Positions 1,413 through 31,845 of a DNA stretch of 32,000 nt are shown piece by piece. The translations under genes and the position numbers were made by a program. Source of the stretch: Desulfobulbus propionicus DSM 2032 (GTDB taxonomy: Bacteria; Desulfobacterota; Desulfobulbia; Desulfobulbales; Desulfobulbaceae). Below the pieces are notes generated by a model. It had not been told where the DNA came from. It was given only the letters and a program-made list of their open reading frames with translations, and searched no databases. The stretch covers positions 1,110,001 through 1,142,000 of the forward strand of contig NC_014972.1 of the NCBI RefSeq assembly GCF_000186885.1, given 5' to 3'. Every line of letters starts with the position of its first letter. Position 1 is the first letter of the stretch.

Positions 1413-1549
1413 GATAGGGTCAGAGGAACAGCAAGGGTTGGCGGTGCAGGTTGCCGTGGATCGATCGGTTCAATGAAGCCGGGAGAAACCATCCGTTTCC
1501 CGGCCTGCAAACACGGCGGGCGGAGCAGCCGCTCCGCCCGCCGGAATGG

Positions 1550-2296
1550 TTATTTTTCCAGCTCGTATTTCTTTTTCAGCGCTTCCCAGTCGGGAGAAGC
1601 CATCAGCTTCTTGAGGCTGGCGTTGACCTTGTCGAGCAGCTCCTGATCGCCCTTGCGCACCGCATAGCCGAATTCCTCCTGCTCCATGCCGAAGGTGCCG
1701 AGCACCTGTACCTCCTTCTTGGCGGCGGCATCCTTGGCCGGGGCGTCATCCATGGCGGCGGCGTCGATGCGGCCGTTGAGCAGGTCCTCCACCGCCAGCG
1801 GCGAGGAGTTGTAGTAACGCAGCTCAAAGTTCCATCCCTTGGCCGCGGCCTGTTCCTTCAGCCACTTGGCCTCGGAGGTGCCCTGCTGGACGCCGAGAAT
1901 CTTCTTGCCGCTCAAGATGGCGTCGATGGTCAGCGGCGAACCCTTCTTGGTGACCATCACCTGCTTGATCACCCAGTAGGGAAGGGTGAAGTTGACCTGC
2001 TTGGCGCGGTCCGGAGTGATGCTCATGCCCGAGGCGATGATGTCGATCTTCTTGGTGAGCAGGCTGGTGATGATGCCGTCCCACTCGATTGGCTGGTGAC
2101 TGACCGCAACCCCCATGTCCTTGGCGATCCAGTTCATGGCCTCGACATCGAAGCCACTGGGCGCGCCGGTTTTGTCGATGAAGGCGAAGGGCGGGAAGTT
2201 GGCGTCGATGCCGTTGACCAGTTTGGTGGCCGCCGAGGCGGAGCCGGAGAAGAGCATCAGGGCACAGGCCAGGATGAGCAGAGCGTTGCGGAGCAT
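1550..2296 (-). CDS. Amino-acid ABC transporter periplasmic substrate-binding protein (family 3)
   Basis: Track ORF 1550..2491 trimmed to ATG at 2296, which gives a signal peptide MLRNALLILACALMLFSGSASA. The body (GIDANFPPFAF, DIIASGMSITPDR) is typical of polar amino-acid binding proteins. Same strand as the permease and ATPase genes. Confidence 0.87.
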   Translation of the reverse strand: MLRNALLILACALMLFSGSASAATKLVNGIDANFPPFAFIDKTGAPSGFDVEAMNWIAKDMGVAVSHQPIEWDGIITSLLTKKIDIIASGMSITPDRAKQVNFTLPYWVIKQVMVTKKGSPLTIDAILSGKKILGVQQGTSEAKWLKEQAAAKGWNFELRYYNSSPLAVEDLLNGRIDAAAMDDAPAKDAAAKKEVQVLGTFGMEQEEFGYAVRKGDQELLDKVNASLKKLMASPDWEALKKKYELEK

Positions 2297-2424
2297 TGAT
2301 CGTATCCTAATCACAAAAGAATTGCCTGGACGACACTTCCAGGAACATGCACCGAGTGGTACCAGGGGACCCCTCGGCACGGTTGTTGTCACCGCCGTTT
2401 GTATAGTGAAAATACCGGGGGGTG

Positions 2425-5400
2425 TCAACGGGATTTCCAGGCGGCTGCCGGTGCAGCGGCCGCGGCCGGAGGACCGGAAAGCGGCTGCCATGGCGGTTGC
2501 AGGAGCTTGCTCACCGCCTTGGCCAACGTCTGCAGGGAGTAGGGTTTTTGCAGATAGCCGCCCACTCCCAAACGCAGGGCGGCGCGGACCTCGTCGCTTT
2601 CCGAGAACCCGCTGGCGATCAAGGCCTTCTGGCCTGGATGGCGGACGATGATCCGTTCATAGGTCTGGCGGCCGTTGATGCCTGGCCCCATGAGCATGTC
2701 CAGGAGCACCAGATCCACCCGGCAGCCCTGCAGATACTCGACCGCCTCCTCGCCCGAGGCCGCGGTTGCCGTCTGGTAGCCGAGGGATTGGAGGAGCTGA
2801 CTGGCGATATCCCGTTGCAGCGGTTCGTCATCGACAATAAGGATGGTCTCTCCGTTGCCCCGCACCGCATGGGTATCCCGTTGTTCGGCAGTGCCTCCAG
2901 GGTTCTGTTCCGAGGCCGGGAAAAAGAGGGCGAAGGTCGTCCCCTGGTCGCTGCTGCTCACCATGACCGCGCCCCGGTGATCCTGGATGGTATTCCACAC
3001 CACGGCCAGACCGAGGCCGGTGCCGCTGCGGCCCATTACCTTGCGGGTATAGAAAGGCTCGAAGATGTGATCGATATCGGCCTGGGCGATACCGGAACCG
3101 GAGTCGGCCACCTCGAGCACCACGTAGCGGCCCGGCTCAACGGCGTGCCGGCGGGCCAGGTCCGGTGCCAGGACTTCGTTGCGGGTACGAATGATGATCC
3201 GGCCCGTATATTCGATGGCCTCGGCACCGTTGGTCATCAGGTTCATCAGGCTCTTTTTGACGTGGATGGGCGAACACGACAGGGGCCAGAGATCAGGGGC
3301 GTATTCGGTCTGACAGCGGACGCCGGGATGGTGGGCGAGCAGGGCCTCATGTTCCGGTGAATGCAGATATTCGTCGATCAGGGTGGTGAGCGCACACAGT
3401 TTACGCTCGCTGCTCACGCCGCGGGCCACGGTGAGCAGATCCGCCACCACCGCTGCGGCCCGCTGCCCGGACTCCTGAATGGCCAGTATCGGCTTGCGCA
3501 GCGTGCTGTCCGGGGCGAGCTGCATCAGCAGCAGATCGGGATAGCTGACAATGCCCGAGAGGATGTTGTTGAGATCATGGGCCACGCCGCCGGCCAACAG
3601 GCCAATGGCTTCCATCTTGCGGGAGCGCTGCAACTGGGCCTCCATGGCGGCCCGTTCCCGTTCGTTCTCCTTGAGTTGGGTAATGTCGTCATAGACAAAG
3701 ACCACCTCGCCGGAGGGAATCCGGTACAGGTGTCCTTGCCGCCAACGGTGGCGGTTCCCGAACTGGTAGAGCATGGGGGGGAGGACCACCGGCTCGCCGC
3801 TTTGCCAGACCTCCCGCATCCGGGCCAACAGGCCGGTGGGCTCGACGCCGGGAAAGTGTTTGACCAGGTGCTGGCCGATCAGATCTTGGCGGGGAAAGCC
3901 CTCGATCCGTTCGGCTGCGGGATTCACATCCTTGATGAGAAAGTCTTGGCCGTCCTCAATCGCCTGCAGAACCCCGACGCCGCTGCTGGTGTGCTCGAAC
4001 AGGCTGCGGTAGATCGACTCGCGCAGGGCGCTCTCTGCCTGCACCTTCTTCAGTTCGGTGAGGTCGAAATGCAGGCTGTACCGTTCGGTACGGCCTTGTG
4101 GCCCGGTCACGGCGAAATAGGAGACATGCACCGGGACCGGATCGCCATGGGCCGACCGAAACAAGGCCTCTTGCGCAGGAAGTTGCCCCGCCCCGGCAAT
4201 CCATTGCTGCAGCCGTTCACCCAGATGGAGCCGCTCTCCTTCGGGGACGATGACGTGTTCGACCTGTTTGCCCAGGGTTTCCTGGGCATTGGTGCCATAG
4301 AGTCGTTCGCAGGTCCGGTTCCAGAAAAGGATGTTCCTGTGGTCGTCAAATCCGATGATCCCCACGGTGGGCAGTTCGTTGGCGATCTGGCGGAAGCGGT
4401 GTTCGCTTTCGCGCAGTTGCAGGGTTCGCTGATCGACCTTTGCCTCCAGATCGTCGACCAACTCTCCGATCTGGGCGCTCATCAGGTTCAGCGTCCGGCC
4501 CAGCATTCCCAGTTCGTCGGCAGGTTGTTCGGCGGCCATGGTGCTCAGCCGGCCCCGCTGCATCTGGGCCGCGCACTCGGTCAACGCGGTAATCCGTTGG
4601 GTGATCTGGCCGGAGATGAAGCGGCTGATCAGCACACCGGCCCAGATCGCCACCAGCGCCACCAGGGTCAGCAGCACAGCGGCGGTCTGGAGGGTGCGGA
4701 TGATGGTGATCTGGGCCTGACCGACCTCGATGCCGGCCTGGTTGATCAGCAGTTGGGCAATCGGCTGGGCGATACCGGTCTGCAGATTGAAATCGTGGAG
4801 CTTGTTCTTGATCGCCAGATCGGTGGCCAGAATCTCCTCGCCTGTGCGCCGCAGCCTGTCAATCTTGTCTCGAACATTTCCGATCGCATCGGCGGAAAGT
4901 TGAGGGGATGCGTCCAACTGCCGGCGCAGGGCGGCCAAGGCGTTGAAGGCCGACTGCATCAGCGGTCGTTGCCGGGTGATGCGGTACTGCTGATAGTCGT
5001 CCAGGAGTTGACGGCTCAAGGCATGCAACGAGGGTGAAGAAGCGATATCGGCTCGCACCCCATGGAGCAGCTGGTCGAAGGTGGCCTCCAGTCCTCGCTC
5101 CGGAGCGGCGAGACGGGTGACCAGGTCGATGGATTCGAGCGAGGTGTCGGCAAAACGTTTGGCCAGGGCAAGGTAGAGGTTCAGGTCGACATGATGCGGT
5201 TGCAGATGCACCCCGATTTCGGACTGGGCGAGCAGCTTTTTCAGTTCGGCGCTGGCGGCAACCGCTTCGGCGATCAACCGCACCGAAGGCTGGGCAAATT
5301 GTTCGCGGGCTTCGGTCAAGCCGATGCGACTGTACTGGAGGAGAAAATCGTTGTGCAGGCGGCGAGCTTTTTCCAACAGCCGGTCCATGTTGAGCGCGGT

Positions 5401-21152: not shown

Positions 21153-21620
21153 ATGACGCCCGCGATCACCGCCCTCAAAAAAGCCAAGGTGCCGTATCGG
21201 CTGCATGCCTACCAGCACGATGCCGGTGCAGCCTCCTATGGCGGTGAAGCCGCGCAGAAGCTTGCCATCGAGCCCGCGCAGGTCTTCAAGACCCTGGTTG
21301 TCGAGACCGACGGCCAGAAGTTTGTGATCGGCATTGTTCCCGTTGCCCATCAGTTGGACCTCAAACTCCTGGCGCAGGCCCTCGGCACCAAAAAAGCCGC
21401 GATGGCCCAGGCGCAGGACGCGGAAAAGATGACCGGCTATGTGCTGGGCGGCATCAGCCCCTTGGGGCAAAAGAGAAAACTGGCGACCGTGATCGATGCC
21501 TCGGCAACCGGTTTTGCCACCATCTTCGTCAGCGCCGGCCGCCGTGGGCTGGAGATCGAGCTTGCGCCCCACGACCTGTGCGCCTTGACCCACGGGACCT
21601 TTGCGGAGATCAGCCGATGA
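21153..21620 (+). CDS. ybaK: Cys-tRNA(Pro)/Cys-tRNA(Cys) deacylase, YbaK/EbsC family
   Basis: Track ORF trimmed to ATG at 21153. MTPAITALKKAKVPYRLHAY, KTLVV, and GYVLGGISPLGQKRKL are typical of YbaK. This is the last GC-rich gene before the AT-rich region. Confidence 0.87.
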   Translation: MTPAITALKKAKVPYRLHAYQHDAGAASYGGEAAQKLAIEPAQVFKTLVVETDGQKFVIGIVPVAHQLDLKLLAQALGTKKAAMAQAQDAEKMTGYVLGGISPLGQKRKLATVIDASATGFATIFVSAGRRGLEIELAPHDLCALTHGTFAEISR

Positions 21621-21934
21621 AGGGTGAAGGAGTTGCAGCGAGGGAGAGTTGGATTTTATTGGAAAAAGTTTGCCCGCTTGGTGCAGCGCCCTGTAGTGCA
21701 AAATGTAAAATTTGGCTTCTGTGACCTATGAATTCCCGGAAATATTCTTGGCGAAAGGACACGCCTTGAAACGTGCCAATAATGCTGCGGGGACTGGAAG
21801 CATGGGTGCTCTCCGAAAACTGGCCATCCTTCCAAATGGAATGATATACAGAAAAGCGGTTATTCCGAACCTATTGATTTTCCAATGACAATCTTCATAA
21901 ATATCGGTAGGCTAATCCAAAATATCTGCTTTAA

Positions 21935-22028
21935 ACACAAGGGTAGAGTATTACAGGAATGAGCCAATCATCCAGGCTCCCTCTACGAGTTTAGATGATA
22001 TACAGATCAGCAGAATAACTTGTTGTGT
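21935..22028 (+). other. attC-like site (degenerate, array end)
   Basis: CTTTAAACACAAG (21929-21941) is inverted relative to CTTGTTGTGTGTAAAAG (22019-22035). The right box is GTTGTGT (22022-22028). The left box ends AAG rather than AAC. Confidence 0.3.
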
Positions 22029-22043
22029 GTAAAAGGCATGTGC

Positions 22044-22589
22044 CTATCTCCCGCGCTGGCACTCGTACTTACACCAGCTCCCTTGCCATTCCGTGCGTCT
22101 GCCGTATTTCCGGTGTAACTTCCCCATATCTTCCAGGTTGTCTGCGCAGATGTCGTCCCAAATATCATGCCACACCATGCCGTACCGCTTCCCTTTTGGC
22201 GGCTTGTAACTGAGTGCGTCGGCACAAACAAACGTCACACGCGGGTCAGCATAGTGCGGGGAAACAAGGTCGATCAGGTCTTGCGATATTTCAACAACCG
22301 TCACATCCGTTACTTCAGGTTTGAGAAGTATATTCTTCAGCACCATGCCAATTCCCAAACCATTTAAAAGGCACGACCCTTTTGCTTTCCATACGGCTGT
22401 GCTGTGGTCGCGCATCTCTGCCGGAGTGTCAGACATCACGAGGTATCCGTTCCGTGTTACCCTCGTGTACGTCTCGCCTACCGGCACGGCGCGGCCTCTC
22501 AGTGCCGAATGAAAATCCATGAAGTCTGTCGTAAAGCGTTCGATCTTCCACGGTCCTTTCTGTCCTTCAGGCAACGTTACTTTTTCCAA
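22044..22589 (-). CDS. Class-I SAM-dependent methyltransferase-like protein
   Basis: 181-aa ORF with a TTG start at 22589 directly after AAGGAGG. Rossmann-like motifs: LLNGLGIGMV (GxGxG), VVEISQD (acidic end of beta-2), and DIWDD. The substrate is unknown. Confidence 0.55.
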   Translation of the reverse strand: MEKVTLPEGQKGPWKIERFTTDFMDFHSALRGRAVPVGETYTRVTRNGYLVMSDTPAEMRDHSTAVWKAKGSCLLNGLGIGMVLKNILLKPEVTDVTVVEISQDLIDLVSPHYADPRVTFVCADALSYKPPKGKRYGMVWHDIWDDICADNLEDMGKLHRKYGRRTEWQGSWCKYECQRGR

Positions 22590-22621: not shown

Positions 22622-22683
22622 ACACAACAAAGCGTTCAAGCCGATGCCGATAAAGCCCGGCACGGCTTAACTAATCGTTATGC
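22622..22683 (+). other. attC-like site
   Basis: ACACAAC-AAAGC-GTT[C]AAGCCGA-TGCCG-ataaagcc-CGGCA-CGGCTTAAC-TAATC-GTTATGC. The arms pair except for one extra C on the left arm. The inner repeats GTTCAAGCCGA / CGGCTTAAC match the aadA-type attC as I remember it. Confidence 0.65.
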
Positions 22684-23040
22684 GCATAATCCCCGCCGCC
22701 GATCGGTATCGTAGCGGAGGAAGTCGCGAAAGCTCTCGAAACAGTCGGCACATTCCAGGTATTCCTGGTATCGCCTTTTGCTCTTGGAAATTTTCGGCGG
22801 AGCCGGGCTATGGAGCGCAACAGCCTCTTTCCCGGCAGGAGTGACGACAAAACAGTGCATGTCGCCCCACAACTTCCTTGTCCCAAGGTCTTTCATTAAC
22901 CCTATCTCGGCCAATTGCTGGCACTTCGCAAAGTCTTTCCCGCCAGGGTCAGTTGCAAAGTGGTTGCGGTATTGCTCGCCATGGCCGTATTGATCAACCC
23001 CGAGCGAGTGCTGCAGGATGTGCAGTAATTCTTTATCCAT
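22678..23040 (-). CDS. Hypothetical protein (120 aa)
   Basis: ATG at 23040 preceded by GGAGGG. The sequence is non-repetitive (MDKELLHILQHSLGVDQYGHGEQYRNHF...). The TAA stop lies inside the GTTATGC box of the attC-like site. Confidence 0.6.
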   Translation of the reverse strand: MDKELLHILQHSLGVDQYGHGEQYRNHFATDPGGKDFAKCQQLAEIGLMKDLGTRKLWGDMHCFVVTPAGKEAVALHSPAPPKISKSKRRYQEYLECADCFESFRDFLRYDTDRRRGLCA

Positions 23041-23063: not shown

Positions 23064-23129
23064 GCATAACAAATCGGTCGAGTTCGGACGCCGCAAACTG
23101 CGCGGCGCCGCTCACCTCAACCATTAGTC
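23064..23129 (+). other. attC-like site (variant right box ATT)
   Basis: Opens with GCATAAC, the complement of the GTTATGC closing the previous site. Arms GGTCGAG / CTCAACC and GCCGCA / CGCGGCG pair imperfectly. It closes with ATTAGTC. A 7-bp hairpin ATGCGTT-aaa-AACGCAT (23051-23067) overlaps the left box. Confidence 0.45.
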
Positions 23130-23300
23130 GTCAGTAATTATTTTTATATTTTTCAGTTCTTCTTTTACAGTTTCACACTGATACCAATCACTCCAGCTAT
23201 CTTCACAACATTTCCCATTATTGTGCTCTCTAGTGCATTTATGGTCGGGCCCTCCATCATGCCAGCCCCACTTTCTATACGGGCACCCCATGTCTTCCAT
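23124..23300 (-). CDS. Small Cys/Trp-rich hypothetical protein (58 aa)
   Basis: The track ORF starts at a TTG (23315). I prefer ATG at 23300, preceded by AAAGGAGGG. Sequence: MEDMGCPYRKWGWHDGGPDHKCTREHNNGKCCEDSWSDWYQCETVKEELKNIKIITDD. Confidence 0.5.
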   Translation of the reverse strand: MEDMGCPYRKWGWHDGGPDHKCTREHNNGKCCEDSWSDWYQCETVKEELKNIKIITDD

Positions 23301-23319
23301 TTTCCCTCCTTTCAACCGC

Positions 23320-23417: not shown

Positions 23418-24281
23418 ATGAAAGTTGACCATATATCCCTTTCTACGACTCCAGTATTTTTAAGGAAAGGTAGTCAGGTTGTTTCCCAAGGCACAGGATT
23501 TTACTTCTTATCAAATAAAGATAATGGCCAAGTCCTTTTCTTATTAACAAATTATCATGTTCTTACAGGTTCAGCTCCTAGTGAACGGAAAGCGCCTATT
23601 GGTGACAATATCTTTTTCCAATTTCACGAATCAGATACCGAAACAGGAAAAATAAGAAATTCCAATCTTCCTTTATTTACTCCAAGCGGTAAGCCATTAT
23701 GGCTTGTAAGCTCCGACCATCCAGAAGCAGATTTTGCTGTAATCCCTTTGCCCACGCAGTGCTCGAAGGATTGTAAAGTGTTTTGTCTTTCAGAAGAATG
23801 GGCAACTCAAAAAATGAAAATTCGACCAGCAACAGATGTTTCTCTGGTAGGTTATCCCTATGGCTTCTATGATACTTCAAACGCGCTTCCTATTTGGAAA
23901 TCAGGAACACTTGCAAGTGAGCCAAAAGTGAATTTCGAAGGAAAACCTCTAATGTTAATTGATGTATCTGCTTTTCCAGGAATGTCAGGGTCTCCTGTAT
24001 TCGCTATTGCCAACGGGATGTATGAAATGGCAGAAGGAAATTCAGTCACACCTGGTATGGTGAGACAATTCATAGGTATTTATGCAAGCATGCAAATGGT
24101 TAGTAAAAACAAATATTTAGAAGAGATCGTGCATGATACAAAAGTTGGGATTAGGGATCTCGAGTCATTAGAGATCGGTCATGTATGGAAAGGTAGCATA
24201 ATTACCGAGTTGATAGACAATATTGATATTGGAAAATATGAAACGGAAATAATACAAGAATTGAGCCGAACAATCGGTTGA
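23418..24281 (+). CDS. Cytoplasmic trypsin-like (chymotrypsin-fold) serine protease
   Basis: 287 aa with no signal peptide. The catalytic triad is in trypsin order: TNYH47VL, D105FAVIPL, GMS190GSPVF. GGAG lies 8 nt upstream of the ATG. Confidence 0.85.
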   Translation: MKVDHISLSTTPVFLRKGSQVVSQGTGFYFLSNKDNGQVLFLLTNYHVLTGSAPSERKAPIGDNIFFQFHESDTETGKIRNSNLPLFTPSGKPLWLVSSDHPEADFAVIPLPTQCSKDCKVFCLSEEWATQKMKIRPATDVSLVGYPYGFYDTSNALPIWKSGTLASEPKVNFEGKPLMLIDVSAFPGMSGSPVFAIANGMYEMAEGNSVTPGMVRQFIGIYASMQMVSKNKYLEEIVHDTKVGIRDLESLEIGHVWKGSIITELIDNIDIGKYETEIIQELSRTIG

Positions 24282-24345: not shown

Positions 24346-25335
24346 ATGAAATCAAGATCACGCGCATTATTGGATAAGTCATTGGGTGCCGTCTTGTCTG
24401 CAATGGAAATTTATAACAAGCCAGATTTCTATTACAGAGAGGAGACTTTTTCAATTTTGATGGTCAATGCATGGGAGCTGTTGCTAAAAGCAAGGTTGTT
24501 GCAGCTTAGTAACAACAAAGTGGCCTCAATAGTCAAATACGAAAAAAGACAAAATGCTGATGGGTCAACTTCTGAGAAACTGTATAGGTCTTACAGTAGG
24601 TCCGGGAATGTAAAAACAGTAAGTCTTTTTGTCGCCTATGATTTAATAATTAATGAGTATGGAGATAAACTTGACAATTTAGTTCGGAAAAATCTTGAAG
24701 CATTAATAGAAATTCGTGACAATTCTGTCCATTTTTTAAACAAAGACTTTGAGTTAAAACGTAAAATATTCGAAATTGGAACGGCCTCACTAAAAAATTA
24801 TCTTAATTTAGTTATTAAATGGTTCGGTGTTGATCTATCTAAATACAATTTCTTCTTAATGCCGATGGCTTTTATCCGTGATTTTCACAAAGCGAAAGTT
24901 GTTTCTTTGACCATCCAAGAAAAGAAATTAATCAAATTTGTTGAAAATTTACAAAGTAAGGTCGAAGACGATGAAACAAAAGATTTCAACCTGGCACTAG
25001 AAGTTTCGGTGCATCTTAAGCGAGCGAGTAGCACTACAACAACAAATACAATAACAATTTCCAATGATCCTAATGCGCCGGTCGTTCGACTTTCTGAAGA
25101 GGATATTCGAGAAAAATATCCATGGGATTATGCTGTATTAACAACAAGGTTAAAGAAAAGATATAATGATTTCAAATGTAACCAAGACTACCATGGAATT
25201 CGTAAGCCGCTTGAATCAGATGAGAAATACTGTAATACACGTCTACTAGATCCAGGTAATCCATCAAGCAGCAAAAAAATATTTTACAACCCAAATATTC
25301 TTAAAGAATTTGATAAACATTATAACAAAAGTTAA
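24346..25335 (+). CDS. HEPN-like (Rx4H) protein; N-terminus resembles the DUF3644 family as I remember it
   Basis: 329 aa. The N-terminus is SLGAVLSAMEIYNKPDFYYREETFSILMVNAWELLLKA. The motif EIR124DNSVH129F (nt 24715-24732) fits the HEPN RNase signature R-[polar]-x3-H. The TAA stop is embedded in the GTTAAC box of the following attC-like site. Confidence 0.65.
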   Translation: MKSRSRALLDKSLGAVLSAMEIYNKPDFYYREETFSILMVNAWELLLKARLLQLSNNKVASIVKYEKRQNADGSTSEKLYRSYSRSGNVKTVSLFVAYDLIINEYGDKLDNLVRKNLEALIEIRDNSVHFLNKDFELKRKIFEIGTASLKNYLNLVIKWFGVDLSKYNFFLMPMAFIRDFHKAKVVSLTIQEKKLIKFVENLQSKVEDDETKDFNLALEVSVHLKRASSTTTTNTITISNDPNAPVVRLSEEDIREKYPWDYAVLTTRLKKRYNDFKCNQDYHGIRKPLESDEKYCNTRLLDPGNPSSSKKIFYNPNILKEFDKHYNKS

Positions 25336-25394
25336 CCACCGGCTTCACGCGGACCCCGCAAAAAGCGCGGGTCCGGTGATCCGGAACGTTATGT
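25330..25394 (+). other. attC-like site (family C, copy 1)
   Basis: AGTTAAC-CACCGG[cttcacgcgg]ACCC-cgcaaaaagcgc-GGGTCCGGTG-atccggaac-GTTATGT. It matches 28687-28750 at all but a few positions (5 substitutions and 1 indel by my hand alignment). Confidence 0.6.
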
Positions 25395-25414: not shown

Positions 25415-25960
25415 ATGCTCAAACACTACTTGGAAGAACTTACGGCGCTTGAGTTTTCCGAACGTGACGCAGGGATTCAGAAGGCGGTTACGAGAGAAAA
25501 GGGCGCAATGAATGCGCGTGGGATACTGCACTCTTCAATGACCCTTCAGGCGTTAGCTGAGTTCTTCGGTGCCGAGTTCTCGTTGCGCTGTGATTTCCTA
25601 AAAGAATTCGTTGTTACGCACAGCGCCTTGTGCAAAGAAGAGGATGCCGTAACAACCGCAAAGACCTTATTTCAGACGAAGTCCTTTGAACAAAGGGACC
25701 GACTGAAGGCCGCATATGAGGCCGCGACAAAGCCTATCGTCGCATCACTAAGCAGTGACTTTCCGAAACAGATCGAAGAGGGCTTGCTCGCCACTTTTGA
25801 GACTCGGATAAAAAAGAACAACATGTATGTCGAGATTGCTTACCAGGCAATGGAAGCCGCTAAGCGCGAAAAGACCCCTATGTTCGCACTTAAACCGAAT
25901 TTCCACGGTATTGGAATTGACGTGGAGGAGGTCTGGAGACGATATGTCAAACATAACTAG
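25415..25960 (+). CDS. Hypothetical protein (181 aa)
   Basis: Track ORF trimmed to ATG at 25415, preceded by GGAGGTGAG. Helical-looking sequence with no motif I recognise. Occupies a single cassette. Confidence 0.6.
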   Translation: MLKHYLEELTALEFSERDAGIQKAVTREKGAMNARGILHSSMTLQALAEFFGAEFSLRCDFLKEFVVTHSALCKEEDAVTTAKTLFQTKSFEQRDRLKAAYEAATKPIVASLSSDFPKQIEEGLLATFETRIKKNNMYVEIAYQAMEAAKREKTPMFALKPNFHGIGIDVEEVWRRYVKHN

Positions 25961-26035
25961 CCAATCCACCGGACAAAGAAAAGCGTTGCTCGTTCCTCGC
26001 CCCGCTTTTCTCTGCCGGTGATTGCTGCATTATGT
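25951..26035 (+). other. attC-like site (family C-related)
   Basis: Opens with ACATAAC, the exact complement of the GTTATGT closing the previous site. Arms CACCGG[A]CAAAGAAAAGCG / CGCTTTTCTCTGCCGGTG pair. It closes with ATTATGT. Confidence 0.55.
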
Positions 26036-26091: not shown

Positions 26092-26286
26092 ATGAAAACG
26101 ATTGGATTTGGAATGAACGGAAATACTTGCCTTTCAAATTGTCCGTATAAAAAATCTGATTACACGGTAATAAAAATCGCGTCTCTGTACTGCCAGAACT
26201 GCGACAAGAATAAGGGAATTAACAGGGAAAATAAAACGGTTGATTGTATAGGAGACGAAAGAAACATAACAATCGCTTCAACCTGA
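26092..26286 (+). CDS. Small Cys-rich hypothetical protein (64 aa)
   Basis: ATG preceded by GGGAGGA. Sequence: MKTIGFGMNGNTCLSNCPYKKSDYTVIKIASLYCQNCDKNKG..., with CxxxC and CxxC spacing. Confidence 0.5.
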   Translation: MKTIGFGMNGNTCLSNCPYKKSDYTVIKIASLYCQNCDKNKGINRENKTVDCIGDERNITIAST

Positions 26287-26321
26287 CATCCTAACGGATG
26301 CAGGTTAAGCAAATGTTCATG
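26264..26321 (+). other. attC-like site (58 bp, best-formed example)
   Basis: ACATAAC-AATC-GCTT[C]AACCTG-a-CATCC-taac-GGATG-CAGGTTAAGC-AAAT-GTTCATG. The left box complements the ATTATGT/GTTATGT start of its cassette. There is a single extra C on the left arm. Confidence 0.7.
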
Positions 26322-26473
26322 GCGACTGCGTCGCCATGAATCGCGGTGCTGACTGCGTCGAGCACCTTGCCTGGCGCCTTGCGCCAGAACAAGGTACTCG
26401 ACCGGACACCGCACACCGATCATTCAAACTTCGTTTGCCTGATCGGCGCACGGCGCCGGTCAGCACCGCGATT
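26315..26473 (+). repeat. 159-bp ORF-less structured cassette, copy 1 (identical to 29145-29303)
   Basis: Base-for-base identical to copy 2. It contains the hairpin TTCATGGCGAC-tgc-GTCGCCATGAA. A 15-bp closing stem AATCGCGGTGCTGAC / GTCAGCACCGCGATT encloses two further hairpins. Read as an attC it is CATGAAT (26335) ... ATTAACA (26477). It is GC-rich, unlike its surroundings. Confidence 0.9.
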
Positions 26474-26572
26474 AACAGTGAAAAATGAAAATCACGAAAT
26501 CCAACATACTGAACCTTATAAAGACCGCTTTCGGCTTCGAATGGACGCCTGAAATATCTCAAGAAGCAATAG

Positions 26573-27887
26573 GGAATCTTGAAATTTAGCTTAGCAAGCC
26601 CCGGCACCATTCACCGACAATTTTATTCACAAAGACCATGCTCTTCTGGCTTTTAATCCGATCGGTTTTGCACCTTGGCGGTGCCTCGCTCTGTGCTCGA
26701 TGGCGGTCTTTTGCCAGTTTGCCGCACTCCGGGCACACTTCACCTGCTTGCAGCCAGAAGCATCCCCATTCGGTCAATGTTATACACCAAGTTGCGCAAG
26801 CCGATCTTTGCTCGGGCTCGGGCTATGCCGATCGTGCGCAACAGTACATTCCCCGCTCGCTGCGCCTGTACACCAAAGACATGCTCGATTCGCGAACGGA
26901 CCTTGGATCTGGTTCGGTTGCCCTCCTGTTCTCTGGGCGTCAAGGGACGATTGCGGCTCCCCTTGCGTTGGATGTGTTCACGAAAACCATCCTGGCCGAG
27001 GCGCTCCAATCGATCCGCGGATCGATAGGCCGAATCCGCCCAGACGTCCTTGCTCGTATTGTCGGCAAGGAGTTGCTCGAACACGTTGCTGTCGTGCAGG
27101 GCCGCATCGGTCACGGCATAGCTGCGAATCAACTTGTGCTTCACATCCACCGAGATGTGGTTCTTGTAGCCGTAATAAGACTTGCCGTTCTTCTTGGTCC
27201 AGCGCGCGTCCGCGTCTTTTCTACGCCGCTTGTTCTCGGACCAGTTCTCCGGGATGTCGCCCTCTTTGATCCGGGCATTTTCCTCCCGGCTGTTCCGCTG
27301 TTTGGGCACGCTGACAATGCTGGCATCCACGATCTGCCCTTTCATCGCCATGAAGCCGTTGTCCCGGAGATGCGCATCGAAGGTCGCAAACAGTTCCTCT
27401 ACAATGCCGGCCTTGACGAGGTCTTCCCGAAAACGCCAGATGGTGGTGGCATCGGGAACCTTCTGGCTGATGTGCAGACCAAGAAAGCGCCCAAAGGAGT
27501 GCCGGTCGAGAATCTGAAACTCGGTCGCGTCATCCGACAGATTGTACAACGACTGCAGGATGAGAATCTTAAACAGCAGGATGACGTCGTACCCCTTCGG
27601 CCCGACCGTAGACTGCCGGCCCTTGTCCCTGGCCTTTTCGAGCGCAGGACGAAACATCTCCCAGTTGACCGTCTCGTTGATCTTGGCAAGTGGGTCGCCG
27701 TTCTTGTCGATTTTGTGCAATCGGTCCTGCAAATCAAAAAAGCCGGGCTGGATCATGGCTGATCTCCATCGGGTGATGGTTGGCGGATGCGGCCTTAAAA
27801 CGATGAAGAATGTAACATATTTACACAAAATCAACAATTTGATAGTTAAACTTGTCGCAGGCTACTGCATTTAATTTTCAAGAAACC
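26573..27887 (-). mobile_element. IS5-family insertion sequence
   Basis: Single DDE transposase gene. Terminal inverted repeats GGAATCTTGAAATTTAGC (26573-) and GGTTTCTTGAAAATTAAA (complement of -27887) match at 13/18. Flanked by direct CAATAG (26567-26572 and 27888-27893). GC-rich like the host core. The exact ends are tentative. Confidence 0.75.
26740..27756 (-). CDS. IS5-family DDE transposase
   Basis: Track ORF trimmed to ATG at 27756 (MIQPGFFDLQDRL). YNLSDDATEFQILDRHSFGRFLGL, IVDASIV, YGYKNHISVD, ADSAYRS and RSRIEHVFG align by eye with E. coli IS5 transposase motifs. Confidence 0.9.
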   Translation of the reverse strand: MIQPGFFDLQDRLHKIDKNGDPLAKINETVNWEMFRPALEKARDKGRQSTVGPKGYDVILLFKILILQSLYNLSDDATEFQILDRHSFGRFLGLHISQKVPDATTIWRFREDLVKAGIVEELFATFDAHLRDNGFMAMKGQIVDASIVSVPKQRNSREENARIKEGDIPENWSENKRRRKDADARWTKKNGKSYYGYKNHISVDVKHKLIRSYAVTDAALHDSNVFEQLLADNTSKDVWADSAYRSADRLERLGQDGFREHIQRKGSRNRPLTPREQEGNRTRSKVRSRIEHVFGVQAQRAGNVLLRTIGIARARAKIGLRNLVYNIDRMGMLLAASR

Positions 27888-28397
27888 CAATAGACATTCT
27901 GAACAGATGTGACTCCACAACAGAACAAGTTTATTTGCTTGGATCGGCCTATTATATTGAAGCAATGAGAGATAAATACAATGGAGAACTGTGTGGCCAA
28001 CCTCTTCCAATATCTTGGCACATTGTTACCTACAATCAAGTCAACTATGAAGCCATTTACTTTCAGGAGCCTTGGGGAGGCTGGGCCAGAGGCTACGGAG
28101 CTGGCCCTAGCAGTTGCGCCTTTGTTCCACAGTTGAAATTTCCACATATAAATTACCACCATGACTTTGGATTGTTTTATAGCGCTGACAATGCAGGCGG
28201 TGAATGGGGTTTCCAATGTGCGATAGAAATTGACCCTGAAGAAACGCATAAAGATCGTAAAGATAAAGACGAATATAGAGACAATATAGTTGACTACGAA
28301 GTAATACGTGTTGATGACAGGATACATAGTTGCACAACATGGTTTGAATTAATAATGGACAGAGACGATGCAATTATTGAGGAGCATCTCAAAACAA

Positions 28398-28658
28398 TCA
28401 AAGATGACGACGACACTCAAGATTGGTAGGCTCCCATCCAGGGGTGGCGATAATACGCACATATTTTCTTTCTTTTCCGCGGAAATGCCTATGTCTAAAT
28501 GTGTGGCGCCAGCCTATACCGTCGTCGGTGTCCTCTGTTTCCATATACCCCCAGACTTCCCTACAACATTCGCATTCAGCAACAGGGTCGGCATCTGGCA
28601 ATTTATTAAATGCTCTCTCAAGCTCTTCGCTTTTTTTGTTAAGCCATACAATCTTCAT
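28398..28658 (-). CDS. Hypothetical protein (86 aa)
   Basis: ATG at 28658. Sequence: MKIVWLNKKSEELERAFNKLPDADPVAECECCREVWGYMETEDTDDGIGWRHTFRHRHF.... Its 3' end overlaps the convergent IS-disrupted gene by 32 nt. Confidence 0.5.
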   Translation of the reverse strand: MKIVWLNKKSEELERAFNKLPDADPVAECECCREVWGYMETEDTDDGIGWRHTFRHRHFRGKERKYVRIIATPGWEPTNLECRRHL

Positions 28659-28686
28659 ATAATAACCTTATATAATAATATAAATC

Positions 28687-28750
28687 AGTTAACAACCGGC
28701 TTCACTCGGACCCCGCAAACAGCGCGGGTCCGGTGAGCCAGACGTTGGGC
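28687..28750 (+). other. attC-like site (family C, copy 2)
   Basis: AGTTAAC-AACCGGcttcactCGGACCCcgcaaacagcgcGGGTCCGGTG-agccagac-GTTGGGC. Near-identical to 25330-25394. Confidence 0.6.
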
Positions 28751-28786
28751 CTCGGTCTGCTCCCTGGTCGGTTGAAAACAACCTCG

Positions 28787-28884
28787 GCCCAACCAGTTCA
28801 TCAAGCGGACTAGCCGCTTATGCCGTCCCTACCAAAACCGAGCATTTCGAGAAGGTCCTTAACAGAGATGCTGTCACGTTGGGT
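28787..28884 (+). other. Possible attC-like site
   Basis: Opens with GCCCAAC, the exact complement of the GTTGGGC closing the previous site only 37 nt upstream. AAC-CAG[TT]CATC pairs with GATG-CTG-tcac-GTT. It closes with GTTGGGT. Central pairing is poor. Confidence 0.35.
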
Positions 28885-28962
28885 TGACATCAGGTAGTCT
28901 CGGCATGACAAGATAGTAGACTCTGCATCATCAACGTCTGCGCGGAGATCGTCAATCTCGCG

Positions 28963-29079
28963 TTACAGACGTTGAACCATACACTCTGAACAGCCATCAC
29001 CGTCGAATGGTGCTCCATGTTCGCACGGACCAGGATCTTCGACAATTCCGGAATCAATCTGCATTCTGTAGATATCCAT
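28963..29079 (-). CDS. Possible small protein (38 aa)
   Basis: ATG at 29079 preceded by GGAGAA. Sequence: MDIYRMQIDSGIVEDPGPCEHGAPFDGDGCSECMVQRL. The longer track ORF (to 29253) is translation of the repeat. Confidence 0.35.
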   Translation of the reverse strand: MDIYRMQIDSGIVEDPGPCEHGAPFDGDGCSECMVQRL

Positions 29080-29102
29080 TATGTTCTCCGTCTGGAATTT
29101 TT

Positions 29103-29151
29103 CCCCAACCAGCAGTTTCAGCAGGCCGAGCTGCTGAACTGCGCGTTCATG
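29103..29151 (+). other. attC-like site (family B, copy 1)
   Basis: CCCCAAC-CA-GCAGTT[T]CAGCAG-gccgag-CTGCTGAACTGC-GC-GTTCATG. The left box complements GTTGGGT at 28878 (6 of 7). There is an extra T on the left arm. Confidence 0.55.
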
Positions 29152-29303
29152 GCGACTGCGTCGCCATGAATCGCGGTGCTGACTGCGTCGAGCACCTTGC
29201 CTGGCGCCTTGCGCCAGAACAAGGTACTCGACCGGACACCGCACACCGATCATTCAAACTTCGTTTGCCTGATCGGCGCACGGCGCCGGTCAGCACCGCG
29301 ATT
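29145..29303 (+). repeat. 159-bp ORF-less structured cassette, copy 2
   Basis: Identical to 26315-26473. It starts at the G of the GTT closing the family-B site and ends with ATT followed by GTGG. As an attC it reads CATGAAT (29165) ... ATTGTGG (29307). Confidence 0.9.
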
Positions 29304-29343
29304 GTGGCCGTAGGTGCAGCGTGGTCGGTAGATGCCGGCCTCG

Positions 29344-29388
29344 CCACAACCAGTGCCTTACAGCGGACAATCCGCTGAAGTGTTACTC
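29344..29388 (+). other. attC-like site (family B-related)
   Basis: CCACAAC-CAGTGC-CTT[A]CAGCGGA-caa-TCCGCTGAAG-t-GTTACTC. The left box is the exact complement of (A/G)TTGTGG at 29301, 36 nt upstream. Confidence 0.45.
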
Positions 29389-29637
29389 AAAATATTCCTT
29401 TATCAGATAAAGCTGACTCGCAATTCCAAAGGTGCCTAATGAAACGCCCTCGATCTCCTCAGCCAAGTCGTCAAAATCTTCTGGAAGATCATCGTAAATA
29501 TCTCCTTTTTGCTTTGCCCGAGCCTCACCTGCAGATATCATTTCTGTGGACCTGGACGAAACTACTTTGCCACCCTGGAATATTTCGACTGTTTCGCCGT
29601 CAGCGGTGATTGTGATAACTACCTTGTCTGGATACAT
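29383..29637 (-). CDS. Hypothetical acidic protein (84 aa)
   Basis: Track ORF trimmed to ATG at 29637 (MYPDKVVITITADGETVEIFQGGK...). The longer N-terminus in the track is translation of the attC-like site 29666-29713. Confidence 0.5.
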   Translation of the reverse strand: MYPDKVVITITADGETVEIFQGGKVVSSRSTEMISAGEARAKQKGDIYDDLPEDFDDLAEEIEGVSLGTFGIASQLYLIKEYFE

Positions 29638-29665
29638 GATCACTCCGTTTTTTAAATTTATTCTG

Positions 29666-29906: not shown

Positions 29907-30200
29907 CTACACACCATCTCCGAAGTAAGTACGAGACGCCTTGTCAAGAACATCGTCGACCTCTTGCTCGTCAAACTCACGCCTATACAGCTCTTGCACA
30001 GCGTGGAGCATTTCATGGACCACAGATGTGGTAAATATTTCCTCGAAAGAAATTTCATTTGTTTTATCTGCACAGGCGTTTACCATCGCTTCAATATTTA
30101 CAACAATCTTCGCCTCTGGTTCCGCTACAGATCCAGATAGATATCCAGCAAATGCAGGTATTTCGTTATTGGGCTTAATGCTAAATTTAATTTCCAGCAT
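29907..30200 (-). CDS. Small HExxH protein (97 aa), putative zincin-like metallopeptidase
   Basis: Track ORF trimmed to ATG at 30200 (MLEIKFSIKPNNEIPAFAGY...). It contains VVHEMLHAVQEL, an HExxHxxQ pattern reminiscent of DUF4157-type peptidase domains. That assignment is from memory. Confidence 0.5.
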   Translation of the reverse strand: MLEIKFSIKPNNEIPAFAGYLSGSVAEPEAKIVVNIEAMVNACADKTNEISFEEIFTTSVVHEMLHAVQELYRREFDEQEVDDVLDKASRTYFGDGV

Positions 30201-30287
30201 AACAAGGTCGCTCCAGCCGACACCGGGAATCATCGCTCATCTTATCGGTATCTCAGCGGCCCGGTGCGGCTGATCTTGGCGTTAGAT
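30197..30287 (+). other. attC-like site (family A, long copy)
   Basis: GCATAAC-AAGGTC[GCTCC]AGCCG[A]CACCGGG ... CCCGGTGCGGCTGATCTTGGC-GTTAGAT. The arms pair, with extra bases only on the left arm. The right box is a perfect GTTRRRY. Confidence 0.55.
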
Positions 30288-30327: not shown

Positions 30328-31845
30328 ATGATGTCATTCGCAAGGCCGTCAGAATCAATACAAATGAGCCTATTTCCTCAATCAAAACCGGCAACTAAGA
30401 GCGCTGATCTTGATGTTCCTAAAACTTATACCGGCTTGGCAGGTTTTCATAAATATTGGGGAAAGAAACCGATTGAAAGCTTGTGTTATCTTGTTGAAAA
30501 ATGCACCAAAGAAGAAGATGTCGTGATGGACCCTTTTCTCGGCTCTGGTTTAATATCGCTGGAGTGCGTACTTCGAAATAGACGTTTTGTCGGTATTGAT
30601 ATTAATCCGTTTTCAATCGAACATGCATCATTCCTACTCGATTTACCTACAAGTCAGGAATACTATCAGGCTTTGATAGAAATCGAAAATTCTGTTGCTG
30701 AAAAAATCAGAAATACTTATCTGACTTCGGAAGGAAAAATTGCATCGCACTATCTTTGGGAAGGGGATCAAATCGTCTCTGTATGGATTAAACCTGAAAC
30801 AGGGCGAAGCCGAATTGAACTAGTGCCGTCTGCGCTAGACTTAAATTCCTTTTCCACATACAAAGATTACAAGCCGTTACATTTCAGAAATCTCAGATTT
30901 TTCACTAACTCTAGGATTAACGTAAAGCCGACTATGACTGTCAGTGATGTTTTTACTGGGCGGGCGATGCGAAATATCGATTTACTCATTGAATCATTTG
31001 CCAATTATCCAGCGCACTTGAAACGTGCGCTGCTTCTCACATTAACATCTTCGGCTGGTCAGATGTCCAACATGGTCTTTGCCATAAAAAATCGGAGTGC
31101 AGGGAAGAGAAATGGTAACGGCGACAAAATAGAAGTTGGTAGTTGGGTTATTGGGTTTTGGTTGCCGGATACACATTTTGAAATAAACGTATGGAATTGT
31201 TTTAAAAATCGTGCGAATAAACTTCTGAAGGCGTTGCCAGCGGAAAGGAAATACTATGCAGTTTCGAACGACGCAGCATCTGTTGAGAATCTTGGAAATG
31301 ATGCATGGCTTATAAATTCTGACTGTAGGTCAGCATTGAAAGAAATTCCGCCAGAGTCAGTAGCATTCGTTTGTACTGACCCGCCACATAGTGATCGTAT
31401 ACCTTATCTTGAATTGAGTGAGCTATGGAATTCCTTGTTGGGATATTCCGTTGATTTTGACAGTGAAATTGTTGTTTCGAATGCAAAAGAACGTAATAAA
31501 TCAAAAATTAACTACAATTCGGAGATGACCGAATTCTTCTTGGAAATATCAAGGGTTCTTAAACCAAATGGTTACATAGCATTGTACTTCAATGCTCGTG
31601 ACGAGGAAAGCTGGCAATACTTGAAAAACATCGAAAAGATATCTGGCACATTAAACTTTATTGGATGTTTTCCAATGACGTACTCAGCTACCTCCGTTGT
31701 GCAAGATAATCGGAAAGGGGCCATGAAGAACGACTACATCATTATTTATCAGAAGGGGCAACCCTACACTGGACATCCCTTGACGAGTGCTTTTGTACAC
31801 CTTCCTGGATGGTCGTCTCAATTCCCAGCAAATAAAGGAGAGTAA
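30328..31845 (+). CDS. DNA methyltransferase (N6-adenine or N4-cytosine; motif I before motif IV, alpha-like order)
   Basis: 505 aa. FHKYWGKKP, the AdoMet motif VVMDPFLGSGL with GIDINP near residue 70, and the catalytic CTDPPH near residue 345. The roughly 250 aa between the motifs could be a target-recognition region. Confidence 0.87.
   Translation: MMSFARPSESIQMSLFPQSKPATKSADLDVPKTYTGLAGFHKYWGKKPIESLCYLVEKCTKEEDVVMDPFLGSGLISLECVLRNRRFVGIDINPFSIEHASFLLDLPTSQEYYQALIEIENSVAEKIRNTYLTSEGKIASHYLWEGDQIVSVWIKPETGRSRIELVPSALDLNSFSTYKDYKPLHFRNLRFFTNSRINVKPTMTVSDVFTGRAMRNIDLLIESFANYPAHLKRALLLTLTSSAGQMSNMVFAIKNRSAGKRNGNGDKIEVGSWVIGFWLPDTHFEINVWNCFKNRANKLLKALPAERKYYAVSNDAASVENLGNDAWLINSDCRSALKEIPPESVAFVCTDPPHSDRIPYLELSELWNSLLGYSVDFDSEIVVSNAKERNKSKINYNSEMTEFFLEISRVLKPNGYIALYFNARDEESWQYLKNIEKISGTLNFIGCFPMTYSATSVVQDNRKGAMKNDYIIIYQKGQPYTGHPLTSAFVHLPGWSSQFPANKGE

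Follow-up and report, generated by a model that had tools for sequence, protein, structure and literature searches.

The bottom strand is the strand that integron integrases (IntIs) recombine (PMC2727003), and the crossover triplet GTT has been stated for all integrons characterised so far (PMC2811028). Not every integron cassette carries a gene: Vibrio has non-coding cassettes that are paralogous, conserved and confined to a lineage, and both selfish and regulatory roles have been considered for them (PMC1382264). Here, we analyse a 159-nt element that occurs as two identical copies in a stretch of 32,000 nt from Desulfobulbus propionicus DSM 2032 (NC_014972.1, positions 1,110,001 to 1,142,000; hereafter the window, in whose coordinates positions are given). 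Its sequence and context suggest that the element is probably an integrase-mobilised, gene-less "attC-only" cassette of Desulfobulbales-type integrons. Its recombination site is a non-canonical derivative of attC.

The element resembles attC sites in several respects. As in long attCs (59-base elements such as the Vibrio cholerae repeats, VCRs), its 3′ part is an imperfect palindrome and the crossover falls at the first base of an xTT triplet. It shares with attCs the R- and L-box-like stems at 5-nt spacing, a variable terminal structure and a bias towards folding of the bottom strand, and its 3′ 90 nt are similar to the local attCs. The triloop at its bottom-strand tip resembles that of attCaadA1, which is likewise 5′-GAA on the bottom strand (PMC2727003). 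Unlike an attC, the element has AAT/ATT in place of the usual boxes, no extrahelical bases, a fully paired spacer and an extra hairpin (H1). It also holds an inverted duplicate of the site within the same cassette, and its sequence, in contrast to that of most attCs, is highly conserved across genera.

Like the non-coding cassettes of Vibrio, the element has no open reading frame (ORF), is restricted to one lineage, shows high interspecies identity and can be present in several copies per array, and it poses the same question of selfishness or regulation (PMC1382264; PMC11014356). The Vibrio cassettes combine non-coding cargo with an ordinary attC, and most of them act as promoters. In contrast, the element consists essentially only of site-derived hairpins, with no detectable promoter and a non-canonical triplet.

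Both substitutions of the element, GTT to ATT in R′ and AAC to AAT in R″, are shared with the engineered site attCaadA7-ATT (PMC2811028). That site is a laboratory construct within a canonical attC and was tested with IntI1, whereas the change in the element is natural and fixed in its family. The two cases also differ in that the cognate integrases of the element are distant from IntI1, some having an N-terminal extension of 150-190 aa, and in that copies of the element lie beside GTT sites.

Two identical copies are bounded by integron crossovers

Copy 1 (26315-26473) and copy 2 (29145-29303) agree in all 159 positions. The match breaks off exactly at the ends of the element, the flanks are unrelated, and sensitive BLAST found no further full or partial copy in the window. 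The left edge of both copies is the G of a GTTCATG that closes an attC, and the two attCs in question (26264-26321 and 29103-29151) are different sites. The right edge of both is ATT, followed by AACAGTG at copy 1 and by GTGGCCG at copy 2. A first-pass annotation, made by a model from the letters of the window, had described this pattern and had read it as site-specific insertion rather than segmental duplication. The description proved exact, and the interpretation is supported by ends that lie at crossovers and by about 60 copies in different contexts. By crossover logic, the cassette proper is 26316-26471 (copy 1) and 29146-29301 (copy 2); G 26315 is part of the preceding attC, and TT 26472-26473 is part of the next cassette.

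The element has a G+C content of 62%, compared with 40-50% in its flanks and 45% for the whole array. The genome core within the window (1-21000) is itself 61% G+C. Thus, the earlier picture of a GC-rich element in AT-rich DNA is right for the neighbouring cassettes, which are AT-richer, but does not extend to the genome.

All attCs of the surrounding array lie on one strand. We detected attCs with a covariance model (R1) built from 21 attCs, all from loci outside the window; it took the place of an energy-based heuristic finder that was over-strict or, with AAT/ATT permitted, gave too much noise. The model recovered 12 held-out window attCs between 22622 and 30283, at 23-47 bits and all on the + strand, while the best − strand score was 12 bits. 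A − strand array around copy 2 was also considered and was rejected, given that every attC scored was on the + strand.

The element belongs to a family found in Desulfobulbales

Related copies were sought with an exact 21-mer from the junction of hairpin H1 and closing stem P2, in one representative genome per species, and with the same 21-mer, one position degenerate, in metagenomes. These word scans returned 19 genome loci and 44 metagenome loci (L numbers below). An nhmmer profile search of the fetched loci added more diverged copies, giving about 60 copies in total, nearly all of them immediately downstream of an attC or an attI-like site.

All named hosts belong to the order Desulfobulbales: Desulfobulbus alkaliphilus, Desulfogranum japonicum (seven loci), Desulforhopalus, and metagenome-assembled genomes of Desulfocapsaceae and Desulfobulbaceae. 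The family is thus widespread among these sulfate-reducing bacteria. One short contig with the element was binned as Marinobacterium. There was no match to the element in plasmids or in E. coli genomes; the element is therefore not a known clinical cassette.

The family comprises long and short forms. The 30 distinct long forms, which are 156, 159, 160, 161, 162 or 165 nt in length, have a mean column identity of 83% when aligned. Short forms of 52-58 nt retain H1 and P2 alone, one further form has 113 nt, and some copies contain insertions. Deletion between direct repeats on either side of the arms of the fold accounts for the short forms; the repeats are GTC(R)AGCACC and GTCAGCACC, and both products expected from such a deletion are observed. 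Arm B is replaced in L008 and L053 and absent from the short forms. Several contigs (L017, L037, L049, L051 and L052) carry two copies one cassette apart.

Both edges follow the cassette rule across the family

At the left edge, the attC model finds a canonical attC whose GTT forms bases 1-3 of the element at both window copies and in 17/36 related loci searched. Longer attCs that the model misses are visible by eye upstream of the element in many more loci. In the window, and in each of the 36 loci that had a match, all attCs are on the element's strand. Elsewhere, in eight or more additional contexts, the element's neighbour on the left is a conserved attI-like sequence (..AGAATMACTT↓GTT, where the arrow marks the crossover); the attI for the cognate Desulfobulbales integrase is given as ..AGAATCACTT↓GTT.

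Some of these loci include the integrase gene. It lies about 0.2 kb upstream of the element on the opposite strand in L013 and L042, and about 0.1 kb upstream on the same strand in L060, with scores of 380-386 bits on TIGR02249 for the three products. In L015, a 334-aa IntI is encoded upstream of the array. The integrases at L013:1887-3392(−), L042:4485-5870(−) and L060:604-2022(+) are 460-500 aa long, with an extension of 150-190 aa before the TIGR02249 region. The integrase gene is co-directional with the cassettes, rather than divergent, in L060 and probably in L029.

At the right edge, every complete copy ends in ATT followed by RRRY-like bases, as at cassette starts. We compared the R″ box of the next attC with G plus the first six bases of the following cassette (TTxxxx after the element's A). 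The box is complementary in 9/9 testable junctions: five agree at 4/4 variable positions, and the other four at 3/4. By chance, 4/4 would be expected in 3.9% of junctions, 3/4 in 16% and at least three in 20%. Therefore, A↓TT is a real cassette boundary, and the downstream ORF and attC form an independent cassette. The crossover base at this edge is A, not G. A crossover at G↓ATT (a GAT triplet) was considered and is ruled out, as the next R″ boxes match TTxxxx and not ATTxxx.

Copies have dozens of different upstream and downstream neighbours, which is a sign of mobility, and attC types that precede the element in one locus occur elsewhere without it. Flanking bases are not duplicated, and no target-site duplication was found at the copies. 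The first-pass annotation had named two patterns that would contradict it, namely copies with target duplications, as in miniature inverted-repeat transposable elements (MITEs), and a longer duplicated segment; both were looked for and neither was found. One of its two readings was an empty cassette, consisting of a large attC with a branched variable region and AAT/ATT boxes. This reading gains support from the family context, the fixed orientation, the A↓TT boundary and the fixed triplets.

The fold is conserved on the bottom strand

The element is non-coding throughout the family. No reading frame is open in all 30 aligned members, and their lengths differ by non-multiples of three, in agreement with the initial finding of no credible ORF.

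On both strands, the minimum free energy fold has an 11-bp hairpin, H1, and next to it a three-way junction in which the 15-bp stem P2 closes off two long arms, as had been predicted from the window alone. Fold z-scores are −10.9 for the + strand and −15.4 for the − strand. H1 joins the cassette start (TTCATG) to an outer R″-like box, CATGAAT (26335-26341). Three pairs of H1 show compensatory changes, 99.7% of its cells are paired, and its loop is TNC on the top strand (GNA on the bottom strand) in 29/30 members. P2 is represented in the family by 14 pairs, 99.3% paired, with a compensatory change in the diverged copy L049a; the closing stem of 15 bp becomes 19 bp in the circular form. The 3′ half of arm A contains an inner R″-like box, CCAGAAC (26384-26390), and the compensatory changes of this arm include G-C/A-T switches at positions that would be bulged in an alternative fold (see below). 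Arm B, on the bottom strand, has many G-T wobble pairs and a C(GNA)G tip.

Covariation among the diverged copies shows that this predicted fold is conserved, and that it is better conserved on the bottom strand. RNAalifold finds 63 pairs in the bottom-strand alignment (A2) versus 51 in the top-strand alignment (A1), with 18 versus 11 pairs that have compensatory double changes and consensus energies of −108.4 versus −73.9 kcal/mol. Over the 63 pairs of the bottom-strand structure, 98.4% of cells are paired. The observed covarying pairs and covariation score were reached by 0/500 column shuffles, and slid-partner controls gave 3-6 covarying pairs.

Individual sequences show the same bias. The bottom strand is the better folder in 29/30 members, with mean energies (bottom versus top) of −67 versus −56 kcal/mol under DNA parameters and −116 versus −94 under RNA parameters. 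Wobbles are found in 192 bottom-only cells versus 30 top-only cells. The TNC tips of the top strand are C(GNA)G on the bottom strand at H1 (29/30), the junction (30/30) and arm B (26/30); GNA triloops closed by C-G are reportedly exceptionally stable DNA mini-hairpins (work of Hirao, Yoshizawa and colleagues in the 1990s). We conclude that the structure of the element is under selection, on the bottom strand. The strand bias and the GNA triloops are more in keeping with a DNA substrate for recombination than with an RNA.

The element is an inverted duplication of an attC-like unit

The attC model matches the 3′ 90 nt of the element at 17.1 bits here (E ~0.006 in 22 kb) and at 18-21.5 bits in three other copies. 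In this parse, R″ is CCAGAAC, L″ is like the local consensus (..CGACCGGACA), and the terminal ATT is read with its A as an insertion. Scoring with an attC covariance model, as first suggested, therefore gave a weak match for the 3′ part, while an outer parse of the element was not reported by model R1.

We compared the two halves of the element without arm B and with the circular junction A↓TTCATG rejoined; reverse-complemented, the left half (CATGAAT...TGGCGC) matches the right half at 41/43 positions. Therefore, the cassette is an inverted duplication of a lineage-typical attC-like unit. As a circle it would be palindromic almost throughout, about one centre at the tip of H1 and another at that of arm A. 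Inverted repeats of the R″/R′ and L″/L′ types form the closing stem when the element is single-stranded. The variable terminal structure is only 3 nt long in the short forms L021 and L026, whereas in long forms it has two arms and 105 nt.

An alternative fold consists of local hairpins, in which an attC of canonical appearance, complete with extrahelical G and unpaired spacers, would be exposed. We do not regard this fold as the conserved one. Its stability is lower by 13 kcal/mol (DNA parameters), and at the positions that tell the two folds apart, covariation agrees with the three-way junction. Of 29 sequences, 8-10 break the pairs that only the alternative fold has, and its would-be bulged bases co-vary with each other as a Watson-Crick pair in arm A (G-C in 15 sequences, A-T in 12).

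Evidence for and against an integrase-mobilised cassette

As a cassette, the element has every feature that could be checked: start, end, orientation and varied contexts. As an attC, it lacks three defining features, namely AAC/GTT, extrahelical bases and an unpaired spacer.

Several observations weigh against its being a cassette mobilised by IntI. R′ is ATT in all complete copies and the outer R″ is CATGAAT; the canonical AAC/GTT is absent there. The closing stem of the long forms is perfectly paired, with no extrahelical bases, and the R/L spacers CGCGG and CCGCG are fully complementary, which leaves no unpaired central spacer. Extrahelical bases, which direct the choice of strand, and an unpaired spacer are common to all known attCs (PMC2727003). 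Only the inner parse (CCAGAAC...ATT) is detected by the attC model, and weakly, at 17-21 bits versus 20-49 bits for ordinary attCs. No intI was found in the window, and none lies between ybaK (21154-21620) and the attI-like site. Nearly every copy adjoins a GTT site, including attI, though data for IntI1 make insertion at GTT about 300-fold disfavoured. Finally, a few fragments (L002/L016/L056; L058) lie outside an integron context.

Against this stand the junctions and neighbours described above. The inner box CCAGAAC keeps AAC. Loss of the extrahelical bases from a VCR site lowers its strand selectivity but does not abolish recombination (PMC2727003). From anatomy and context, we infer that the element is mobilised by IntI, and we consider it to be primarily a selfish or structural cassette. 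IntI would excise and insert it like any cassette, using the folded bottom strand and cleaving AA↓T instead of AA↓C. With its tiny cargo and very stable fold, the element may be an efficient hitch-hiker that multiplies within arrays; this would explain the two identical window copies and the pairs found one cassette apart elsewhere.

Such cassettes are small. A cargo-free circle would measure 156 nt in the case of a long form and, provided that short forms are still mobile, about 50 nt in theirs. Thus, the family bears on the minimal size and the selfishness of cassettes, and on the origin of attC via inverted duplication. It is possibly the most minimal cassette family described, yet it sits inside a well-understood system. 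Attribution to integrons also keeps such repeats in Desulfobulbales genomes from being wrongly annotated as MITEs, small RNAs or small ORFs. Should the element be no more than a neutral hitch-hiker, it is a modest addition to the known non-coding cassettes.

The AAT/ATT triplet and the choice of partners

The AAT/ATT boxes distinguish the family from its neighbours. The outer R″ box was included in the search word; the diverged copy L049a, which was found independently of that word, keeps AAT...ATT with compensatory changes in H1 (TTCTTGCCGAC/GTCGGCAAGAA) and P2. Ordinary attCs in the same loci have GTT in 57/61 cases and AAC in 57/61. ATT is present in 3/61 ordinary attCs, none of them compensated. 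Two of these three are in the window, at 23064-23125 (23.5 bits) and 25951-26031 (27.9 bits), where the site ends in ATT and R″ keeps AAC; the third is in L046. Among the other departures, L006 has one site ending in GAT and L023 has two with AAT in R″.

The engineered site offers a guide to what such a change could do. In the IntI1 system, attCaadA7-ATT, which carries the double change, is still cleaved (Frumerie et al. 2009; PMC2811028). Recombination of attCaadA7-ATT with attI1-GTT falls to 3.1e-3 of wild type, while that of ATT with ATT is 1.0, and mutagenesis indicates that only the identity of the first triplet base between partners matters (PMC2811028). If the native integrases act like IntI1, copies would prefer one another as partners and would be hard to excise singly; we give this partner preference a rather low probability. 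The compensated A:T in R′ and outer R″ would then make another copy the preferred partner and disfavour exchange with GTT, and inserted copies would be relatively stable. The copies at 26315 and 29145 could together mobilise the whole block between them; the movable block, if the partner preference is true, would be 26472-29301 (2.8 kb), including an insertion sequence.

The GTT neighbours of nearly all copies conflict with such a preference. Either the native integrases are more tolerant, or rare events suffice over evolutionary time, or the partner preference is wrong.

A further and speculative possibility, to which we likewise give little weight, is that the family represents a "second address" in integrons. 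It would have an A:T crossover pair, compensated in both boxes, and would recombine efficiently only between copies. Such copies would be portable orthogonal sites that lock single cassettes and let the integrase move multi-cassette blocks, and the palindrome may also act as a switch, with the three-way junction as its masked state and an attC-like hairpin as its exposed one. The fixed ATT/AAT family would be the first natural counterpart found of the engineered specificity change (PMC2811028), and it leads to a testable prediction on partner choice and on the mobilisation of blocks in chromosomal integrons. A literature search for natural ATT attCs, attC-only cassettes and Desulfobulbales integron repeats found no description.

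Alternative explanations

The element could be a regulatory gene-less cassette that is kept for its effect on neighbours, as a promoter, a barrier to transcription or translation, or an mRNA-stabilising stem-loop, placed between cassettes or right behind attI. This is improbable as the main explanation, though it has the best standing among the alternatives. Most gene-less cassettes of Vibrio superintegrons have promoter activity (PMC11014356), and the element is often the first cassette after attI or lies directly upstream of ORF cassettes; no promoter-like hexamers were found inside it, however, and its G+C content is 62%. Its sense transcript would also be highly structured (−98.6 kcal/mol), but a role in sense mRNA does not explain why the fold of the antisense strand is the better conserved one. 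The stems of array copies are not followed by a T-run and are thus not intrinsic terminators; a T-run is present only at the non-integron fragment in L002/L016. A terminator scan made a single terminator-like call, H1 on the − strand of copy 1, which is owed to the flank. A regulatory role concerns benefit rather than identity, and it is compatible with the element being an attC-only cassette.

It is less likely again, and quite unlikely overall, that the conserved structure acts as RNA, either an antisense small RNA or a structured 5′ leader of the downstream cassette gene, with the cassette system as carrier. A mobile structured non-coding RNA was part of the second reading of the first-pass annotation, and it is not supported. 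Small RNAs have been proposed as products of gene-less cassettes (PMC11014356), and the very stable fold and strong covariation are in favour of such a role. However, searches against Rfam 15 gave no window match at gathering thresholds, and relaxed hits on the element were at chance level (≤21 bits). Neither strand has a sigma-70-like promoter within the element or next to it. The distance from the element to the start of a downstream ORF is 15-40 nt for many copies, but the better-folding strand is antisense to the genes it would lead. The three C(GNA)G tips are said to be a hallmark of stable DNA mini-hairpins, not of RNA. G-U pairs favour the − strand, but the same bias is needed by a DNA substrate recombined on its bottom strand (PMC2727003). 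Lastly, arm B is replaced or deleted in many copies, including the deletion derivatives, while the site-like stems H1 and P2 stay.

IS1111-attC insertion sequences target attC sites. Like these elements and the group IIC-attC introns (PMC3001079), the element is found in cassette arrays at attC sites. They encode their own transposase or reverse transcriptase and insert inside or next to attC by their own chemistry, whereas the element encodes nothing and its ends are integrase crossovers. With REP/REPIN sequences and hairpin MITEs it shares a short, GC-rich and multi-copy nature and hairpins in single-stranded DNA. Unlike REP/REPIN sequences, it has no dispersed intergenic distribution and no linked RAYT-type gene in the loci examined, and its position and orientation are set by integron sites.

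It is very improbable that the element is a MITE-like, non-autonomous element that targets attC hairpins with a transposase supplied in trans (of IS1111-attC, IS200/IS605 or REP/RAYT type). Short, hairpin-rich copies beside attC sites would suit such an element, and other mobile elements (group II introns) do target these sites. However, the insertion point is always G↓TT, where the integrase crosses over, and this holds for attC and equally for attI, a site that is no hairpin; the right end follows the cassette rule; and the box pair TTCATG/CATGAA co-varies as in cassettes. Transposon-type terminal inverted repeats and target-site duplications are both absent. An IS5-family transposase lies 270 bp from copy 1, but this copy of IS5 is inside a different cassette, and no transposase is consistently linked to the element.

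A segmental duplication or assembly artefact without mobility of its own, to which the identity of the two copies might point, is refuted by identity that stops at the crossover bases between unrelated flanks and by about 60 related copies in different contexts and independent assemblies.

Other features of the array and the family

Coordinates of the element, its parts and the neighbouring integron sites are collected in Table 1.

Table 1. Features of the element and of the integron array in the window.
Feature	Position	Position in copy 2	Strand	Basis or remark
Element, copy 1	26315-26473		+	exact repeat, family alignment, junction logic
Element, copy 2	29145-29303		+	exact repeat of copy 1
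Hairpin H1, TTCATGGCGAC-TGC-GTCGCCATGAA	26316-26340	29146-29170	+	predicted fold and covariation
P2, 5′ arm, AATCGCGGTGCTGAC	26339-26353	29169-29183	+	pairs with 26459-26473
Arm A of three-way junction	26357-26402	29187-29232	+	fold, four compensatory pairs
Arm B, variable terminal structure	26403-26458	29233-29288	+	most variable arm; ten compensatory pairs
P2, 3′ arm, GTCAGCACCGCGATT	26459-26473	29289-29303	+	ends in A↓TT crossover triplet 26471-26473
attC-like 3′ 90 nt (R″ CCAGAAC ... R′ ATT)	26384-26473	29214-29303	+	attC model, 17.1 bits
attC of cassette preceding copy 1 (gene 26092-26286)	26264-26317		+	27.8 bits; GTT = copy 1 bases 1-3
attC preceding copy 2	29103-29147		+	37.4 bits; GTT = copy 2 bases 1-3
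Tiny ORF-less cassette right after copy 2	29302-29384		+	~81 nt; own attC 29344-29384, 25.2 bits
attC closing the insertion sequence-interrupted cassette after copy 1	28687-28746		+	46.6 bits
attI-like site (GATATACAGATCAGCAGAATAACTT↓GTT) at array start	21995-22024		+	homologous to array-start sites in related loci

The array begins at an attI-like site whose homologues abut the element in related loci, some of them beside intI. At this junction, GTTGTGT is complementary to R″ of the first cassette attC, ACACAAC. The site lies only ~390 bp past ybaK (gap 21621-21994), with no adjoining integron integrase gene; attI-like sequence is also found without an adjacent intI in L006 (after groEL) and in L008.

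The tiny ORF-less cassette after copy 2 starts with TTGTGG, which is complementary to R″ of its own attC (CCACAAC). No relatives of this cassette were found in the fetched loci. The cassette after copy 1 is split by an IS5-family insertion sequence at ~26640-27880 (transposase ORF 26740-27837, −, with DDE_Tnp_1 and DUF772 domains), and R″ of the attC that closes it is AGTTAAC, where TGTTAAC is expected.

About half of the cassettes have an ORF antisense to the top strand of the attCs, which is unusual for an array (22044-22589, 22678-23040, 23124-23315, 28398-28658, 28963-29083, 29383-29640 and 29907-30233, all −). Cassette-internal promoters are therefore implied. Between two of the − strand ORFs, at 28787-28827, there is a weak match to the attC model (16.9 bits) that may be a degenerate attC. 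The attCs at 25330-25385 and 28687-28742 share 91% identity although their cassettes differ; L015 has a similar attC, and so does L020, where it comes just before the element. A trypsin-like peptidase (23418-24281), a DUF3644 protein (24346-25335) and a 505-aa N6/N4 DNA methyltransferase (30328-31845) are cassette-borne or adjacent to the array, and the methyltransferase gene is located past the last detected attC.

Some family members are fragmentary. A 47-nt fragment (H1 and one P2 arm) lies just past a sulfatase gene in three related assemblies (L002:5694-5735, L016:5897-5938 and L056:2460-2519). It is a circular-junction permutation of the element, and in L002 and L016 it is followed by a terminator-like T-run. 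L058 has a truncated copy within GC-rich DNA, and in L038 a truncated copy is joined to another attC.

Other members are interrupted. The same uncharacterised insertion (beginning GCCGGGGGAATCTCTCCCCCAGCC...) splits arm A in two unrelated assemblies (L010:1-95, −; L025:1-112, −), and L057 has a 44-nt insertion between the arms. Group II introns lie right after a short copy (L003:2980-4806, −) or inside arm A (L014: ~1480-3400, +). These introns match Rfam D1-D4 and domain V models, carry reverse-transcriptase-like ORFs and are in the sense orientation of the array.

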